IMG/VR virus record: IMGVR_UViG_2531839477_000014
DNA from: a virus
Taxonomy: Duplodnaviria > Heunggongvirae > Uroviricota > Caudoviricetes
Strand: one strand, 5' to 3'
DNA length: 36,374 bases
Below the pieces are notes generated by a model that was not told the DNA's origin, did not search any database, and worked only from the letters and a program-made list of their open reading frames with translations. A program made the position numbers and the translations under genes. Shown here piece after piece: positions 1,369-14,696 of this stretch. Within the stretch, counting starts at the first letter, position 1; each line of letters begins with the position of its first letter.

Positions 1369-1444
1369 GCCGATATAGCTCAGTTGGTAGAGCAGCGCAT
1401 TCGTAATGCGAAGGTCGTAGGTTCGACTCCTATTATCGGCACCA
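1369..1444 (+). tRNA. thrW: tRNA-Thr (anticodon CGU)
   Basis: 76-nt sequence GCCGATATAGCTCAGTTGGTAGAGCAGCGCATTCGTAATGCGAAGGTCGTAGGTTCGACTCCTATTATCGGCACCA with D-loop, CGT anticodon loop, T-loop GGTTCGA and 3' CCA; matches remembered thrW. Confidence 0.95.
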
Positions 1445-10684: not shown

Positions 10685-11680
10685 GTGACCGTGAGAGCAC
10701 TACTGACCCCTGAAATAGCCCCGCGTATGGGGATCGTATTGTTCAGACCAGGTTCAGAGCTGATGCCCCTGTTTATGCAGGGGCGTGTACTGCTGGAGCC
10801 TGAGCCGGAACGTTATTCATCTTTCGCCAGTGGTGCCGTTCCCGCGGCATCACAACCGCTGGCGGATGATCCTGCTGTTCGGGCCGTGTTCCGCAATGAG
10901 GCAGTGATCCGTCGTGCTGGTGGCGTGGAATGTCTTGAAAGCTGGTTACTTCGTGAAAAAGGCTGCCAGTGGCCTCATTCCGACTGGCATAGCGAGAACA
11001 TGACCACAATGCGACACGCTCCGGGCGCAATCCGTCTGTGCTGGCACTGTGATAACCAGCTGCGCGATCAGTTCACGGAACGGCTGGAATCAATGGCAAC
11101 GGATAACTGTGCCCGCTGGGTGTTGTCTGTTGTGCGTCGGGATCTCGGTTTTGATGATAGTCACGTTGTGACAATGCCGGAACTGTGCTGGTGGCTGATT
11201 CGTAATGACCTGGCGGATGCCTTACCGGAAAGTGCAGCCCGTAAGGCACTGAGATTACCAAAGCCTGTTGTGCCGTCTGTCACCCGGGAAAGTGACCTTG
11301 TGCCTTCGGTTCCTGCCACCAGCATCATCCAGGATAAGGCGAAAAAGGTGCTGACGCTGAAAGTGGATCCGGAGTCGCCGGAGTCTTTTATGTTACGCCC
11401 AAAACGTCGCCGCTGGGTTAATGAAAAGTACACGCGCTGGGTTAAGACACAGCCGTGTGCATGTTGTGGAAAGCCTGCTGATGATCCCCACCACTTGATA
11501 GGCCACGGTCAGGGTGGGATGGGTACAAAAGCGCATGACCTCTTTGTGTTGCCTTTGTGCAGAAAGCATCACGACGAGCTGCATGCGGATACCGTGGCAT
11601 TTGAAGAGAAGTATGGCTCCCAGCTGGAGCTGATATTTCGTTTTATCGATCGTGCGCTGGCAATTGGCGTACTGGCGTAA
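10685..11680 (+). CDS. DUF968/YdfU-like nin-region protein with C-terminal HNH-like zinc motif (GTG start uncertain)
   Basis: C-terminal CACCGKPADDPHHLIGHG...LPLCRKHHDELH Cys/His cluster; family assignment from memory. Confidence 0.55.
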   Translation: MTVRALLTPEIAPRMGIVLFRPGSELMPLFMQGRVLLEPEPERYSSFASGAVPAASQPLADDPAVRAVFRNEAVIRRAGGVECLESWLLREKGCQWPHSDWHSENMTTMRHAPGAIRLCWHCDNQLRDQFTERLESMATDNCARWVLSVVRRDLGFDDSHVVTMPELCWWLIRNDLADALPESAARKALRLPKPVVPSVTRESDLVPSVPATSIIQDKAKKVLTLKVDPESPESFMLRPKRRRWVNEKYTRWVKTQPCACCGKPADDPHHLIGHGQGGMGTKAHDLFVLPLCRKHHDELHADTVAFEEKYGSQLELIFRFIDRALAIGVLA

Positions 11681-11693
11681 GTGGAGAACGAGC

Positions 11694-12446
11694 ATGAACC
11701 TTGAAGCCTTACCAAAATATTACTCCCCAAAATCTCCAAAATTGAGTGATGACGCACCGGCGACAGGCTCGGGTGGTTTAACAATTACAGATGTGATGGC
11801 TGCGCAGGGGATGGTGCAGTCGAAAGCACCGCTTGGGTTTGCCTTATTCCTGGCAAAAGTTGGTGTTCAGGATCCTCAGTTTGCGATTGAAGGTCTGCTC
11901 AATTACGCGATGGCACTGGATAACCCGACATTGAACAAATTGAGTGAAGAAACCCGGCTACAGATCATTCCTTACCTTGTGAATTTTGCCTTTGCTGATT
12001 ATTCCAGGTCTGCGGCAAGTAAGGCTCGCTGTGAGCATTGTGCTGGTACTGGATTTCATAATGTATTGCGCGAAGTGGTGAAACACTCCAGAAGCGGGGA
12101 GTCTGTTATCAAGGAAGAGTGGGTGAAGGAACTATGTCAGCATTGTCATGGTAAGGGAGAAGTCAGCACAGCGTGCAGAGGGTGTAAGGGTAAAGGTATT
12201 GTCCTGGATGAAAAAAGAACCCGGCTTCATGGCACGCCTGTTTATAAGATTTGTGGGCGTTGCAATGGAAACCGGTTTAGCCGTTTACCAACCACACTGG
12301 CGCGGCTTCATGTCCAGAAGCTGGTACCAGACCTGACGGATTATCAGTGGTACAAAGGATATGCAGATGTCATTGATAAACTGGTTACAAAGTGCTGGCA
12401 GGAGGAAGCTTACGCTGAAGCACAATTGAGAAGGGTGACGAGATAA
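11694..12446 (+). CDS. late-gene antiterminator, Q-like (250 aa)
   Basis: Cys/His-rich segments (CEHCAGTGFH, CQHCHGKGEVSTACRGCKGKG, CGRCNGNRF); last gene before a promoter-hairpin-terminator arrangement and the lysis genes; start at ATG 11694 with GTGGAG Shine-Dalgarno. Confidence 0.65.
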   Translation: MNLEALPKYYSPKSPKLSDDAPATGSGGLTITDVMAAQGMVQSKAPLGFALFLAKVGVQDPQFAIEGLLNYAMALDNPTLNKLSEETRLQIIPYLVNFAFADYSRSAASKARCEHCAGTGFHNVLREVVKHSRSGESVIKEEWVKELCQHCHGKGEVSTACRGCKGKGIVLDEKRTRLHGTPVYKICGRCNGNRFSRLPTTLARLHVQKLVPDLTDYQWYKGYADVIDKLVTKCWQEEAYAEAQLRRVTR

Positions 12447-12477
12447 GCGATTTTCGCCGAAGATAACGACATAATGC

Positions 12478-12506
12478 TTGTGTTTCTCAAAAAATATGGA
12501 TAAGAT
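12478..12506 (+). promoter_or_regulatory. candidate late promoter (PR'-like)
   Basis: -35 TTGTGT (12478-12483), 17-bp spacer, -10 TAAGAT (12501-12506); followed by hairpin TCAACGAT-N15-ATCGTTGA (12511-12541). Confidence 0.4.
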
Positions 12507-12552
12507 TTTCTCAACGATGGGGCTTGTGTATCTATCGTTGAACGATTTTTAC

Positions 12553-12578
12553 GACCTCGCTATTGCGAGGTTTTTTTA
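12553..12578 (+). terminator. intrinsic terminator (tR'-like) downstream of the Q-dependent late promoter
   Basis: Stem ACCTCGC / GCGAGGT with loop TATT, followed by a run of seven T. Confidence 0.75.
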
Positions 12579-12613
12579 TGGTTTTTTCTATTCAATCTAC
12601 ATCAAAATCAATG

Positions 12614-12622
12614 TGTTATAAT
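12614..12622 (+). promoter_or_regulatory. extended -10 promoter element (TGnTATAAT) for the first moron gene
   Basis: TGTTATAAT about 38 nt upstream of ATG 12660; strong AAACAGGAGAA Shine-Dalgarno follows. Confidence 0.5.
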
Positions 12623-12659
12623 GTTTTCTGTAAAACAACATTAAAAACAGGAGAACATT

Positions 12660-12929
12660 ATGAAACTGACCTCTATCCATCTTGAAATACTACGTCGAGT
12701 GAATGAATTGCAGCCAAAGGATTCTAGAATTCAGGCTGCATCATTACCTCATCTCTCAGCAAAAGAGGTTAATTTTGCTATTTCAGATCTTGCTGATATA
12801 GGTTTTATCGATGTTATACGAAGCAAATCTGCCGAAGGTGGATTGATTGCTAATGAGATAACGTCAAAAGGTTTTGCTTTTTTGAGTGAGATTGGCGCTG
12901 AAAAAAATTCATCGATGAGCACTCATTGA
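12660..12929 (+). CDS. hypothetical small protein, possible winged-helix DNA binder (89 aa), AT-rich moron gene
   Basis: Strong RBS; segment HLEILRRVNELQP...GLIANEITSKGFAFL resembles a recognition-helix and wing pattern; atypically AT-rich by eye. Confidence 0.6.
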   Translation: MKLTSIHLEILRRVNELQPKDSRIQAASLPHLSAKEVNFAISDLADIGFIDVIRSKSAEGGLIANEITSKGFAFLSEIGAEKNSSMSTH

Positions 12930-13126
12930 TTTCTGCTTCAATCGGCTGCCAATTGGCAGCCTAAACTGTAAAGTGAATTTAAAATCGCCTACAATTGATG
13001 CTTAAATTTTGTTCTGTATCATCTGCAGGTTTAGGGATATCACAGTAGCTTTCTGACAAGAAGAGTTCTTTTCTTCTACCAATGAAGTGGTTATGTTAAC
13101 CTGCGCTAAATCGAGACTGGTGCGGA

Positions 13127-13933
13127 GTGGAATCGAAAGTGTCATATTTTTACAGAAGCAAGAATATTTCAGGTGTTTCTATAAATGAAGATAGCTTGAT
13201 TAGCTTAAGCACGGCAATTGTCGAACGCTGCGTTAAAATGAATGAGCAAGCTCAAAAGGAAAGTAGGGAAGTTTGTGCTCAATGTGTTTTTTTTATTTTG
13301 TTCGATGGTAAGGGATATAAAGTTGATTCTATCGGTGAGCTTGTGAAATACTTTAGACAGGCCACTAGGATTGATCAAATAATTTTTACTATTGAAACTT
13401 ATCAAAGTCGACAGTCTAACAGGATGAATGGATCTTGGATGGAGCTACGAATTGATGAGAGGAATTCAAATAGCAGCACAATGATTGTAGCATCGGAAGA
13501 TAATGAGTGGGTTGACTCGTTATGGATTACGATTCAGGATTTACTTAACAAGTGCAAAAATAAATTTAGATTTTTTAGAACAGCTTGGACTATGTTAAGT
13601 ATCCAGATTTCAGGTGTGACAGTTGGCTTTTTGCTTAGCTTATGGACAGCCTCAAAACTGGCGCCAAAACTATCAATCGATGGTGCATTTGCTTTATCAT
13701 TTATTTGTATCTTTATTTTGTTTTCGAACTTATGGAGCTTTGCTATTCCATTAATAATTAAGCTTATCGACTTTTTGTTTCCTAGTGTTAAGTTTGTTAT
13801 TAATGGTAAAAATTACTTTCACTGGAGTGTCCAGGCTATAATTGGAGCGATTGCCAGTGCGGTTATATTATATTTTATTAGCTCCATGTTGCTTTTTGCA
13901 TTAGAAATGTTAAATAGCATCATTAAGAAATAG
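13127..13933 (+). CDS. hypothetical membrane protein: ~150-aa N-terminal soluble domain + three predicted C-terminal TM helices (start may be GTG 13139)
   Basis: Long ORF in an AT-rich segment; hydrophobic stretches TAWTMLSIQISGVTVGFLLSLW, FALSFICIFILFSNLWSFAIPLII, AIIGAIASAVILYFISSMLLFAL; followed by an intrinsic terminator. Confidence 0.6.
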   Translation: MESKVSYFYRSKNISGVSINEDSLISLSTAIVERCVKMNEQAQKESREVCAQCVFFILFDGKGYKVDSIGELVKYFRQATRIDQIIFTIETYQSRQSNRMNGSWMELRIDERNSNSSTMIVASEDNEWVDSLWITIQDLLNKCKNKFRFFRTAWTMLSIQISGVTVGFLLSLWTASKLAPKLSIDGAFALSFICIFILFSNLWSFAIPLIIKLIDFLFPSVKFVINGKNYFHWSVQAIIGAIASAVILYFISSMLLFALEMLNSIIKK

Positions 13934-13966
13934 TTAATGAATTAGTTATAATTACATCAATTCTAT

Positions 13967-13990
13967 GGCTGCCAAATGGTGGCCTTTTTT
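13967..13990 (+). terminator. intrinsic terminator after the membrane-protein moron gene
   Basis: GGCTGCCAAATGGTGGCC hairpin (with G-U pairs) followed by TTTTTT; shares the GGCTGCCAA arm with the palindrome at 12944-12961. Confidence 0.5.
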
Positions 13991-14041
13991 ATTCCTCTCA
14001 TTTCTATTTCTGAGAGGACTCACTGCAATAAGAGGTGGCTA

Positions 14042-14428
14042 ATGTCCGATCCGATTTCCGGCACAGGGTTAGCTGGTGGAGCCCTAACGGGCGCTAGTAT
14101 TTATGGACTGCTGACCGGAACTGATTACGGCGTTGTATTTGGCGCATTTGCAGGGGCTGTATTCTATATAGCAACAGCAGCAGATCTGAGTGCATCGCGT
14201 CGACTGGCATATTTTATCGTGTCATATATTGCTGGGATCCTTTGCTCTGGGTTGGTTGGCTCCAAGCTGGCAAACTTGACCGGATACAGTGATAAACCTC
14301 TGGATGCTATTGGTGCCGTAATCGTCTCTGCTTTAGCCGTTAAAATCCTGACGTTCCTGAATAATCAGGATATCGGCTCGCTGGTGGCGCTCATAACGCG
14401 CCGGGGAGGTTCAGGTGGAGCTAAATGA
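14042..14428 (+). CDS. holin-like membrane protein (128 aa)
   Basis: ATG 14042 with GAGGTGG Shine-Dalgarno; Gly/Ala-rich hydrophobic helices; first gene of the lysis cassette. Confidence 0.55.
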   Translation: MSDPISGTGLAGGALTGASIYGLLTGTDYGVVFGAFAGAVFYIATAADLSASRRLAYFIVSYIAGILCSGLVGSKLANLTGYSDKPLDAIGAVIVSALAVKILTFLNNQDIGSLVALITRRGGSGGAK

Positions 14429-14696
14429 CCCGACAGCAACTATTAATGCGCTGTTATGTGCTTGTGTTGTTATTACTCTGATGTTTTATCGTCGTGGTGA
14501 TTCGCGGCATCGTCCTTGGGTTTCACGTTTAGCCTGGCTGATTACTGTTACATACAGTGCTGTTCCGTTGGCCTATCTCTGTGGGATTTATCCTCACTCC
14601 TCATGGCTCATTATCGTGGCGAATACTATTTTTCTTTCCGTGCTGGTGGCCGTCAGAGGCAACGTTGCACGTTTGGTTGATCATCTGAGGCACTAA
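14415..14696 (+). CDS. second small lysis-cassette membrane protein (holin or antiholin-like, 93 aa)
   Basis: GTG start after GGGGAGGT; three hydrophobic segments; stop overlaps endolysin start (TAATG). Confidence 0.5.
   Translation: MELNDPTATINALLCACVVITLMFYRRGDSRHRPWVSRLAWLITVTYSAVPLAYLCGIYPHSSWLIIVANTIFLSVLVAVRGNVARLVDHLRH

Follow-up and report, generated by a model that had tools for sequence, protein, structure and literature searches.

The cargo slot and its two hairpins

The window (the whole stretch of 36,374 nucleotides that was analysed) is the late region of an E. coli lambdoid prophage, with Q, tR', an AT-rich cargo of two genes, holin and endolysin. Its genes run in the order DUF968, Q, terminator, AT-rich cargo, two holins and a GH19 endolysin. 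Morons of lambdoid phages were reportedly described in 2000, by Juhala and colleagues and by Hendrix and colleagues. A moron is an autonomous cargo unit that has a sigma-70-type promoter at one end and a factor-independent terminator at the other; it sits between two genes that are neighbours in related phages, and its G+C content differs from theirs (PMC3714127). The cargo of the window has such a base composition unlike that of the backbone, its G+C content being 0.31-0.37 over 12450-13950 as compared to 0.47-0.57 in the flanks. The two cargo genes encode an 89-aa protein and a membrane protein, and each of them is followed by a hairpin (Table 1).

Table 1. Features of the cargo slot and its surroundings, in window coordinates
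Feature	Position	Strand	Description
tR'-like intrinsic terminator after Q	12553..12577	+	stem GACCTCGC-TATT-GCGAGGTT followed by T7; from the terminator scan
Promoter block of the first moron	12590..12622	+	extended -10 TGTTATAAT at 12614-12622; candidate promoter, from consensus only
89-aa gene, first moron	12660..12929	+	from the ORF list
Hairpin 1	12944-12961	+	perfect 18-bp palindrome GGCTGCCAATTGGCAGCC; read as the terminator stem-loop of the first moron, its T tract gone
Junction segment between the morons	12962..13085		read as replacing the T tract of hairpin 1 and the native -35 region of the membrane-protein gene
Second moron	13086..13933	+	conserved 5' leader and membrane-protein gene
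Hairpin 2 with T6	13967..13990	+	predicted intrinsic terminator; 5' edge of the conserved lysis module
Holin leader and Phage_holin_8-type holin gene	13993..14428	+	backbone module that hairpin 2 would protect; gene at 14042-14428
Holin-leader hairpin	13993-14018	+	UCCUCUCA-N10-UGAGAGGA; predicted fold

Hairpin 1 starts 14 nt past the stop codon of the 89-aa ORF and has a T run on neither strand. Hairpin 2 lies 33 nt past the stop of the membrane-protein ORF (13933) and 57 nt ahead of the holin ATG (14042), and consists of the stem-loop GGCTGCCAAATGGTGGCC (13967-13984) and TTTTTT (13985-13990). The initial annotation had placed two related palindromes here, and we found its coordinates to be exact and the relationship to hold: the hairpins are identical at 15 of 18 positions, and when up to 3 mismatches are allowed the window has two matches to the 18-mer, where 0.02 are expected by chance (none of 100 shuffles gave two). 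The 9-mer GGCTGCCAA has three strand-specific matches in the whole window against 0.47 expected, and these are confined to the two hairpin sites.

Both hairpins have the G+C-rich stem (about 5-10 bp) and the short loop of an intrinsic terminator, each folding into a 7-bp stem with a 4-nt loop, at -15.7 kcal/mol (z -3.9) for hairpin 1, the most stable of the hairpins, and at -11.4 kcal/mol (z -2.8) for hairpin 2. The T6 of hairpin 2 supplies the U-rich tract that an intrinsic terminator has directly 3' of its stem. Hairpin 1 is followed by TAAACTGT on the + strand and by GATTGAAG on the - strand, and because there is no U tract 3' of its stem we do not class it as an active terminator; the terminator scan called hairpin 2 and did not call hairpin 1. 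Hairpin 2 is poor as a DNA palindrome and good as a plus-strand RNA hairpin, its G.U pairs restricting it to RNA of the plus strand. It has two such pairs and is of moderate stability only. We also considered hairpin 1 as a promoter, with TTGGCA (12953-12958) as the -35 element, but the best -10-like hexamer is 21 nt off and the scan reports nothing, while a minus-strand terminator at this site is ruled out by the absence of a T tract. Searching the literature for the hairpin sequence as a string returned unrelated primer matches only.

Hairpin 2 at the boundary of the lysis module

The homology of the window with other prophages breaks at both ends of the cargo: with other Q-type prophages it stops at about 12576, and it resumes at 13964/13967. 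In an alignment of 7 loci (A2), conservation begins at the first G of hairpin 2 and the sequences upstream are unrelated. Upstream of the holin leader with this hairpin, at least 8 different sequences are found, among them those of 'empty' phages, in which the hairpin comes about 10 nt after the first terminator; the hairpin and the holin leader are also present in mEp390, an isolated coliphage. This leader is kept in all 32 distinct pre-holin sequences, and the holin belongs to PHROG 198 (Pfam PF16931 on the L230 homolog); Phage_holin_8 loci number at least 581. The tR'-like terminator after Q (-13.7 kcal/mol, z -5.0) is the first of a tandem terminator pair and adjoins the GGCTGCC hairpin in cargo-free phages. 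Homologous CCTCGC..GGGG hairpins are found about 10 nt 5' of a GGCTGCC-type hairpin in L022, L066, L070 and phage mEp390, and the distance from the first terminator to the GGCTGCC hairpin, which is about 10 nt in these four and in L025, is 1.39 kb in the window. The cargo is inserted, as morons are, between elements that are adjacent in related phages.

The stem of hairpin 2 changes its letters and keeps its pairs. Stem pair 5-14 is G.U in the window, A-U in L147 and mEp390, G-C in L001 and C-G in L224, and 11 of 14 variants have U.G as pair 4-15. Over these 14 hairpin variants, which were hand-picked and some of which may be terminators of other descent that occupy this site, 99% of the cells are paired and 3 pairs show double changes, and none of 500 shuffles did as well. 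Compensatory changes of this kind are those of an intrinsic terminator, and the U.G and G.U pairs fit an RNA of the + strand only. We predict that hairpin 2 with its T6 is an intrinsic terminator at the cargo/lysis boundary, common to prophages with other cargos. It would be the downstream factor-independent terminator of a moron, and the homologous single-gene morons each have a hairpin with a T tract. In the late operon of phage lambda, with its pR'-tR' and Q antitermination, Q-modified polymerase overrides terminators in lytic growth. In a lysogen of the present prophage, hairpin 2 with U6 would act as a Rho-independent terminator and stop transcripts from the cargo promoter or promoters short of the holin, and in lytic growth Q-modified polymerase coming from pR' would pass it.

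In lambda-type late operons, Stx and other cargo have their site between Q and holin S (PMC4104026; PMC8065619). The cargo of the window, in the same way, lies downstream of Q and tR' and upstream of the lysis cassette. Unlike in lambda, the backbone here has a second terminator directly before the holin leader, which gives the tandem pair of cargo-free phages; to our knowledge, lambda itself has no terminator at that position. The Q and holin families here also differ from those of lambda.

Two proposed morons and the joint between them

The promoter block of the first moron (33 nt, alignment A6) is invariant in 6 loci whose 89-aa-family proteins share only 49-60% identity, and its consensus suggests that it may drive the first moron. 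The 89-aa family is very small, with 3-4 true homolog clusters among 1.8 billion representatives in an exhaustive HMMER search; a word-based homolog search returned identical proteins or fragments only, a scan of contigs with a two-protein alignment gave no confirmed relative, and a PDB sequence search with the profile gave nothing significant. The protein belongs to PHROG 32916, a family without assigned function. Its Pfam matches, both sub-threshold (DUF2513, E=2.4e-4; HTH_45, E=0.026), suggest that it is possibly a winged helix-turn-helix (wHTH) protein, and its AF2 single-sequence model was unusable (pLDDT 54).

Homologs of the 89-aa protein at 49-60% identity are present in five loci (L149, L251, L252, L253, L254), each with the same promoter block. 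In all five, the gene stands alone in front of the holin (which in L253 is of the same family as that of the window), and GGCTGCCATT[T/C]GG[C/T]GGCC with a T tract lies 33-37 nt past its stop, the holin coming directly next. The window is collinear with the terminators of these homologs through the hairpin and diverges right after it (alignment A7), and by this alignment hairpin 1 is the positional homolog of the terminator behind the 89-aa-gene homologs.

The second moron has relatives of its own, and homology to L147 and L230 begins at about 13085. The membrane-protein gene most likely starts at the GTG at 13139 (264 aa), which the alignment of homologs favours, while the longest ORF runs from 13127 (268 aa); of a promoter for this gene, only a -10-like TATGTT is kept. 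Pfam, PADLOC and PHROGs place the membrane protein only in a family without assigned function, and neither cargo protein matches any defence-system model of PADLOC-DB 2.0 at E<=1. In L147, L230 and L234-237, the membrane-protein gene is followed by a terminator and a holin, and the 89-aa gene and hairpin 1 are missing. The downstream stem is of the GGCTGCC type in the close homologs L147 and L230, and related but different in L234-237 (the 51%-identity group).

Between the two lies the junction segment, for which blastn found no homolog in any of the fetched loci, nor, in distant searches, in E. coli genomes beyond the cassette or in phage records; a metagenome scan with a 20-mer of the hairpin 1/junction found the same cassette only. 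Of 5426 complete E. coli genomes, 41 contain the cassette with an identity of >=99%; E. coli F9792 (NZ_CP024273) and ACN001 are among its carriers. Both hairpins are unaltered in 50 of 50 fetched copies (6 sequence variants), which are all >=99% identical, near-clonal, and hold no within-cassette variation for testing selection on hairpin 1.

From what can be observed here, namely the anatomy of the slot, the points at which homology breaks off, a homology of position and a stem that is maintained, we infer terminator activity, read-through at hairpin 1 and an order of events. With a probability of roughly 70%, we propose that the slot between the Q antiterminator with tR' and the lysis genes holds two nested morons, one with its terminator intact and the other with its terminator disabled, that their hairpins are related by descent, and that their operon ends at hairpin 2. 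The original first moron would have consisted of the promoter, the 89-aa gene, a GGCTGCC-type hairpin and its T tract, followed by the holin. A recombination joint at the 3' base of the hairpin 1 stem (12961/12962) would then have swapped the T tract for the membrane-gene segment, the membrane-protein gene arriving with its own copy of the same terminator family (hairpin 2). No parent of 12962-13085 was found in any collection searched, which bars a reconstruction of the event at 12961/12962; this parent could already have had a hairpin without a T tract. Hairpin 1, having no U tract, would be expected to terminate poorly, and transcription probably reads through it. It is for this reason probable that the 89-aa and membrane-protein genes are co-transcribed from the extended -10 promoter, with transcripts ending at hairpin 2. 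The perfect palindromy of hairpin 1 is a trait that descent from a terminator does not demand.

The arrangement is ordinary phage mosaic architecture, as is expected for the field. Like the morons of lambdoid phages, the cargo has a candidate promoter, a terminator, an insertion in a slot and a deviant G+C content; unlike in these, two morons are nested, the inner terminator lacks a T tract and the pair is probably one operon. What the locus offers is a base-resolved example of how cargo may build up in the lambdoid Q-to-holin slot, which in other phages is the slot of Shiga toxin: a second gene would have been added to a complete single-gene moron precisely at the foot of its terminator stem, turning this terminator into a read-through hairpin and probably fusing the two morons into one operon. 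Furthermore, the hairpin and holin leader provide a practical landmark for delimiting cargo in E. coli prophages.

Origin of the hairpin pair

A search for the motif across related prophages, which the initial annotation had advised, showed that the motif family recurs in many prophages and homologous loci. It is present in at least 120 loci, 106 of them T-tailed, in 34-40 contexts, and a T tract accompanies 109 of the 132 motif occurrences in viral contigs. The matched control stem GGCGTCC gave 30 loci, 7 with a T tail, which makes the motif at least 4 times commoner than the control overall and at least 15 times commoner among T-tailed sites. Both hairpins are copies of a terminator stem-loop that is found repeatedly where cargo meets the lysis genes in E. 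coli lambda-like prophages, and both would descend from one widespread terminator allele at module boundaries. The common origin first suggested, a duplicated terminator or cassette boundary, is upheld in the sense of copies of a terminator family at module boundaries. We rejected its simplest form, a local duplication, since the hairpins show 3 differences despite an otherwise near-clonal cassette and each copy accompanies its own gene in other genomes.

Part of the similarity across distant contexts may be convergent, as GGC...GCC terminator stems are common in these phages. Taken further, the two hairpins would be independent GC-rich structures of the terminator type that share an arm by chance or convergence and have no common origin. 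Stems of this form followed by T runs are indeed generic here: a second stem family, GGCTCGC, was found in 15 contexts, L157, L224, L226 and L255-257 have other stems at this pre-holin site, and chance alone should yield tens of degenerate 18-mers of this type in the viral collection, as the 30 control loci illustrate. However, an independent origin is unlikely in view of a 15/18 match within 1 kb, of this very stem at the same position in 5 of 5 diverged 89-aa homologs and downstream of the close membrane-gene homologs L147 and L230, and of the excess over the control, above all for T-tailed sites.

A binding site for the wHTH-like protein had also been suggested. Hairpin 1 would then be a DNA operator through which a dimer of the 89-aa protein controls the membrane-protein gene, and hairpin 2 maybe a second, weaker site. 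What hairpin 1 has in common with the palindromic operators of dimeric (winged) HTH regulators is a perfect inverted repeat of 18 bp beside a possible wHTH gene, to which the weak Pfam matches of this type point; the hairpin is intergenic, between the gene of the candidate DNA-binding protein and the next gene, and its perfect form is nearly cassette-specific, being found elsewhere only in one unrelated contig (L045). Its position, distribution and terminator homology are unlike those of such operators. The homologs have an ordinary terminator at the position of the palindrome and no target gene downstream, the hairpin family is found in about 40 contexts (34-40) without the 89-aa protein, and the invariant promoter block of the 89-aa gene contains no GGCTGCCAA half-site. 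The palindrome overlaps no promoter-like site, its end being about 34 nt from the nearest promoter-like hexamers (12995-13022), and it lies about 130 nt ahead of the conserved upstream block of the membrane-protein gene. In addition, the 89-aa and membrane-protein genes each occur without the other, and the wHTH fold is unconfirmed at a model pLDDT of 54. The motif does not co-occur with the protein family at a regulated promoter, and we consider the suggested binding improbable.

Hairpin 1 could also have been retained as a functional RNA element, either as a 3'-end stabiliser or processing site of the 89-aa mRNA or as a partial attenuator that sets the product ratio. This would fit the same origin as the nested morons that we prefer, and it would suit the high stability of hairpin 1 and a stem which was perfected rather than decayed and which is unaltered in all copies. 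In a near-clonal cassette, however, such invariance is uninformative, and no Rfam family matches; we regard a retained function as possible, if rather doubtful. With Rfam 15 at the gathering threshold, only the tRNA at 1369-1441 passes in the whole window, and at E<=10 no relevant family was found on 12400-14200, where even the best matches stay far below threshold (isrD, for example, at 19 bits against 37). In EHEC prophages, the moron site 3' of pR' encodes the convergent Hfq-bound anti-sRNAs AsxR and AgvB (Tree et al., 2014, PMC4104026). As with these, short structured RNA with terminator hairpins would fill the interval from the moron CDS to the conserved phage ORF that follows it. Unlike them, the region has no sRNA-family match in Rfam even at E<=10, terminator-driven noise aside, and only about 30 nt are left from the promoter-like site to hairpin 2.

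Finally, the hairpins could themselves have taken part in recombination. They would then be the sites at which a dedicated hairpin-specific system (attC-like or transposon-end-like) inserted, as a cassette, the 1005-bp segment 12962-13966. The hairpin copies bound this segment exactly, and the hairpin is the sole sequence common to many mix-and-match junctions. But the left edge of the first moron is a different hairpin, tR', there is no hairpin upstream of the membrane-protein gene in L147, L230 and L234-237, 3 of the 18 positions distinguish the two copies although the cassette is near-clonal, the cassette has no recombinase gene, and in about 33 of the 80 closest holin loci the junction lacks a hairpin, all of which makes such sites scarcely credible. 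That GGCTGCC-N4-GGYGGCC is an active sequence-specific recombination joint for cargo swaps, with the hairpin pair as the footprint of one hairpin-targeted insertion, also appears very unlikely to us. Short conserved boundary (linker) sequences have been proposed to mediate module exchange between lambdoid phages (Susskind & Botstein; Clark et al., 2001; both cited in PMC3029335). The 18-nt sequence resembles these in standing at junctions with independently exchanged left and right neighbours; it differs from them in that the shared sequence is a predicted terminator and that many junctions at the same site lack it. The retention of the hairpin at joints can be explained without a role in recombination, because selection for termination could suffice. 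The presence of one 18-nt terminator allele at many mosaic joints bears on the choice between boundary-sequence exchange and random illegitimate recombination followed by selection. An active joint of this kind would extend beyond the Q-lysis slot, to junctions at U-like/V-like tail genes and at decoration/capsid genes.

Sequence, fold and setting of the two hairpins

The window is an E. coli lambdoid prophage with the gene order DUF968 gene, Q, terminator, 89-aa gene, membrane-protein gene, two holins and GH19 endolysin, in which the two cargo genes are AT-rich (GC 0.31-0.37, versus 0.47-0.57 in the flanks). The initial annotation had placed two related palindromes with a shared arm around the membrane-protein gene, and both motifs, their coordinates and the arm proved exact: with up to three mismatches allowed, the 18-mer occurs twice in the window where 0.02 sites are expected, and the 9-mer arm has no further site in the 36 kb. 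As RNA, each hairpin forms a 7-bp stem with a 4-nt loop (-15.7 kcal/mol for hairpin 1 and -11.4 kcal/mol for hairpin 2, both far under shuffled controls). Hairpin 1 lacks a T run on both strands and was not called by the consensus terminator scan; hairpin 2, which lies 33 nt past the membrane-protein stop (13933) and 57 nt ahead of the holin start, and the hairpin at 12553-12572 were scored terminator-like. Promoter-like hexamers overlap or flank hairpin 2 in a number at chance level; going by sequence, the minus-strand site could conceivably drive antisense transcription into the membrane gene's 3' end.

Features of the window and of fetched comparison loci (L handles)
Feature	Position	Strand	Remarks
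tRNA gene	1369-1441		71.8 bits; sole Rfam match above threshold in the window
Q antiterminator	11652-12446		after DUF968 gene
Terminator	12553-12577		between Q and 89-aa gene
T6 tract	12582-12587		T7 in all 50 other fetched cassette copies; sole cassette indel
Block TTCAATCTAC[A/G]TCAAAATCAAT[G/A]TGTTATAAT	12590-12622		upstream of all six 89-aa-family genes
89-aa ORF	12660-12929		hairpin 1 downstream
Hairpin 1, GGCTGCCAATTGGCAGCC	12944-12961		perfect palindrome, 14 nt past 89-aa ORF stop
TTAAGA-18-TATAAT	13923-13952	plus	promoter-like hexamers near hairpin 2
TTGGCA-16-AATTAT, upstream TG	13975-13948	minus	promoter-like; -35 inside hairpin 2
Hairpin 2, GGCTGCCAAATGGTGGCC	13967-13984		T6 at 13985-13990
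Holin-leader hairpin, UCCUCUCA-N10-UGAGAGGA	13993-14018		between terminator and ribosome-binding site
Holins	14042-14428 and 14415-14696		then GH19 endolysin
Tandem hairpins, CCTCGCTACGGCGGGG+T then GGCTACCTGCGGGTGGCC+T6	L263 1955-2010		phage mEp390 (NC_019721), immediately ahead of holin
18-mer with T tract	L004 4260-4277 (and >24 similar loci); L027 5380-5397; L100 3513-3530; L036 2595-2612		enterobacterial phages
Inverted repeats, e.g. CAGGCTCTGGG...CCCAGAAGCCTG, TAGCGCCCAGCC...GGCTGGGCGCTA	L149 3373-3430; L048, L006, L202; L234 3345-3420		
Methyltransferase and membrane genes	L230 1760-3696; L147 1850-3795; L235-L237		Q-holin slot
Cassette in prophage remnant	L238 2292-7524		E. coli XB2 (NZ_CP162303)

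Of 5426 complete E. coli genomes, 41 carry the 1.7-kb cassette stretch at 99% identity or more, invariably in one piece; the stretch has no match among 50,697 deposited phage genomes. In strain XB2, cassette and lysis genes persist in a heavily degraded prophage remnant adjoining yfdP/yfdQ/yfdR, amid phage genes with frameshifts and truncations. Neither cargo protein matches a Pfam family at threshold or a PADLOC defence model; the membrane protein is predicted to have an N-terminal alpha/beta domain followed by three C-terminal helices, and no convincing structural relative of this model was found.

The boundary between cargo and holin

Comparison of loci indicates that hairpin 2 is a backbone element marking the cargo boundary. 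In about 270 other E. coli genomes only the Q side matches, ending at ~12576, just beyond the first terminator, and in a smaller group the match runs only rightwards from 13964/13967, at the first base of hairpin 2. Two loci (L001, L002) carry a different 261-aa cargo gene, then GGCTGCCATATGGCGGCC with T5, then the window's holin leader; in an alignment of seven loci (A2), conservation starts at the hairpin's first G and the sequences upstream are unrelated. Among pre-holin loci gathered by holin protein, independently of the motif, the conserved leader (TTCCCCTCAT..CTGAGAGGA) has directly 5' of it a variable element: a GGCTGCC-type hairpin after several cargos, and in other loci another terminator (for example GGCCGC-CTTAAT-GCGGCC, GGCTCGC-TTAG-GCGGGCC or GGCCTCT-TCTT-AGAGGCC) or a long inverted repeat; of the 80 closest holin loci, about 33 have no such element. 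Four cargo-less phage loci (L022, L025, L066, L070) and the isolated coliphage mEp390 carry a CCTCGC..GGGG terminator, homologous to the 12553-12572 hairpin, about 10 nt upstream of a GGCTGCC/GGCTACC hairpin, so that the cargo of the window separates two terminators that otherwise form a tandem pair. Prophages that share the Q family but differ in cargo and holin family likewise close the cargo with a GC-rich hairpin and T run. The arrangement fits the textbook layout of a moron, in which a promoter, a gene and a factor-independent terminator are inserted where relatives have adjacent genes (PMC3714127).

Pair counting covered 14 distinct hairpins from the pre-holin site, hand-picked from lists, of which three may be unrelated terminators there; 99% of cells were paired, both sides had changed at three pairs, and the observed covariation was reached by none of 500 shuffles. 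Stem pair 5-14 occurs as G-C, G.U, A-U, C-G and U-A, and pair 4-15 is U.G in 11 of the 14. Since a G.U pair turns into an A.C mismatch on the opposite strand, hairpin 2 folds in rightward transcripts only, as a terminator of cargo and late transcripts would be expected to do.

Several minor observations concern the same boundary. Both tandem hairpins of mEp390 are unannotated in its record, though other terminators are annotated. In several loci with different holin families, long inverted repeats separate the terminator hairpin from the holin; the window has none. The holin-leader hairpin was found in 32 of 32 distinct pre-holin sequences collected and could control holin translation.

Origin of hairpin 1 and of the two cargo genes

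Diverged relatives of the 89-aa protein escaped the word-based protein search; distant blastn with an alignment-based scan gave five (L149, L251, L252, L253, L254), at 49-60% identity. All five share with the window a 33-nt upstream block, invariant in the alignment of these blocks (A6) and ending in a predicted extended -10, TGTTATAAT; since it is conserved beyond the need of a bare promoter between genes whose proteins are this diverged, it may hold a regulatory site. Each homolog is followed, 33-37 nt past its stop, by GGCTGCCATT[T/C]GG[C/T]GGCC and a T tract, with a holin module immediately behind. This module is lambda-type in four of the five; L253 has the window's own holin leader and family, and so displays the layout to be expected prior to the arrival of the second gene. 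The alignment of 3' ends (A7) is collinear across coding sequence, spacer and hairpin and diverges at the first base past the stem, where the window reads TAAACTG and the others TTTTTTATT or TTTTCTATTT. The next 124 bp (12962-13085) have no detectable relative in any collection examined.

Homologs of the membrane protein (34-79% identity) have an N6_N4 DNA methyltransferase gene or a 66-aa gene upstream, without the 89-aa gene and without an upstream hairpin, and homology of their loci to the window begins only at ~13085. In L230 and L147 it runs through the hairpin 2 homolog (GGCTGCCAAATGGTGGCC and GGCTACCAAGTGGTGGCC, respectively) into the holin; L234-237 have a different terminator hairpin, GGCCCACCTATAGTGGCC with T5, before another holin family. 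Outside the E. coli cassette, the membrane gene nearly always follows the methyltransferase gene in the Q-holin slot, which suggests a functional pairing that was lost in the window.

We propose that the cargo consists of two nested morons, one comprising the promoter block, the 89-aa gene and hairpin 1, the other ~13086-13933 and hairpin 2, and that the joint at 12961/12962 deprived the first terminator of its U tract. The initial annotation had considered a common origin as terminator or cassette boundary, a reading that is right in substance. Recent duplication of the hairpin was rejected, as 3 of 18 positions differ though cassette copies differ by at most five substitutions per 1.4 kb; such divergence in a near-clonal cassette points to two alleles of one terminator family from two parents. 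Lacking a U tract, hairpin 1 should let polymerase pass, so that one transcript would cover both genes. The joint would also have removed the -35 upstream of the membrane gene (TTGCAC in L147, the window keeping only a -10-like TATGTT), a loss which, speculatively, would make read-through useful. From established lambda biology we infer that in the lysogen hairpin 2 should insulate the holin from transcription of the cargo, and that Q-modified polymerase should override it during lytic growth. The feature adds a new, well-resolved case to a kind already known, that of moron terminators at mosaic joints.

Rival readings and distribution of the motif

The other reading first offered, in which the motif is a binding site for the wHTH-like 89-aa protein, found no support and is improbable: the distribution of the hairpins, their position and the independent occurrence of the two genes all speak against it. 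Pure coincidence would draw on the generic nature of GGC..GCC terminator stems, but the positional homology of the hairpins makes it unlikely. GGCTGCC recurred in the viral collection at 120 loci or more, at least 106 of them T-tailed, in 34-40 contexts; there a second real stem, GGCTCGC, has 37 loci in 15 contexts, and the matched control stem GGCGTCC has 30 loci, only seven with a T tail. For EHEC prophages, convergent anti-sRNAs have been described at the moron site (PMC4104026); no Rfam family matches the cargo region, and anti-sRNAs of the EHEC type are not recognisable there.

Elsewhere in the late operon, the 18-mer with its T tract separates U-like from V-like tail genes, decoration from major capsid genes and a Q-like gene from other holins, and precedes an L-like tail gene; its neighbours on either side combine independently. 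This pattern fits the 'short conserved boundary sequence' model of module exchange (PMC3029335) and illegitimate recombination with selection for terminator-keeping joints equally well; that the 18-mer itself acts as a recombination joint we consider very improbable. A second recurrent phage terminator allele, GGCTCGC-AWWT-GCGGGCC with a T tract (L294-L330, about 15 contexts), likewise has U.G at stem position 4, which may be a general feature of such terminators.
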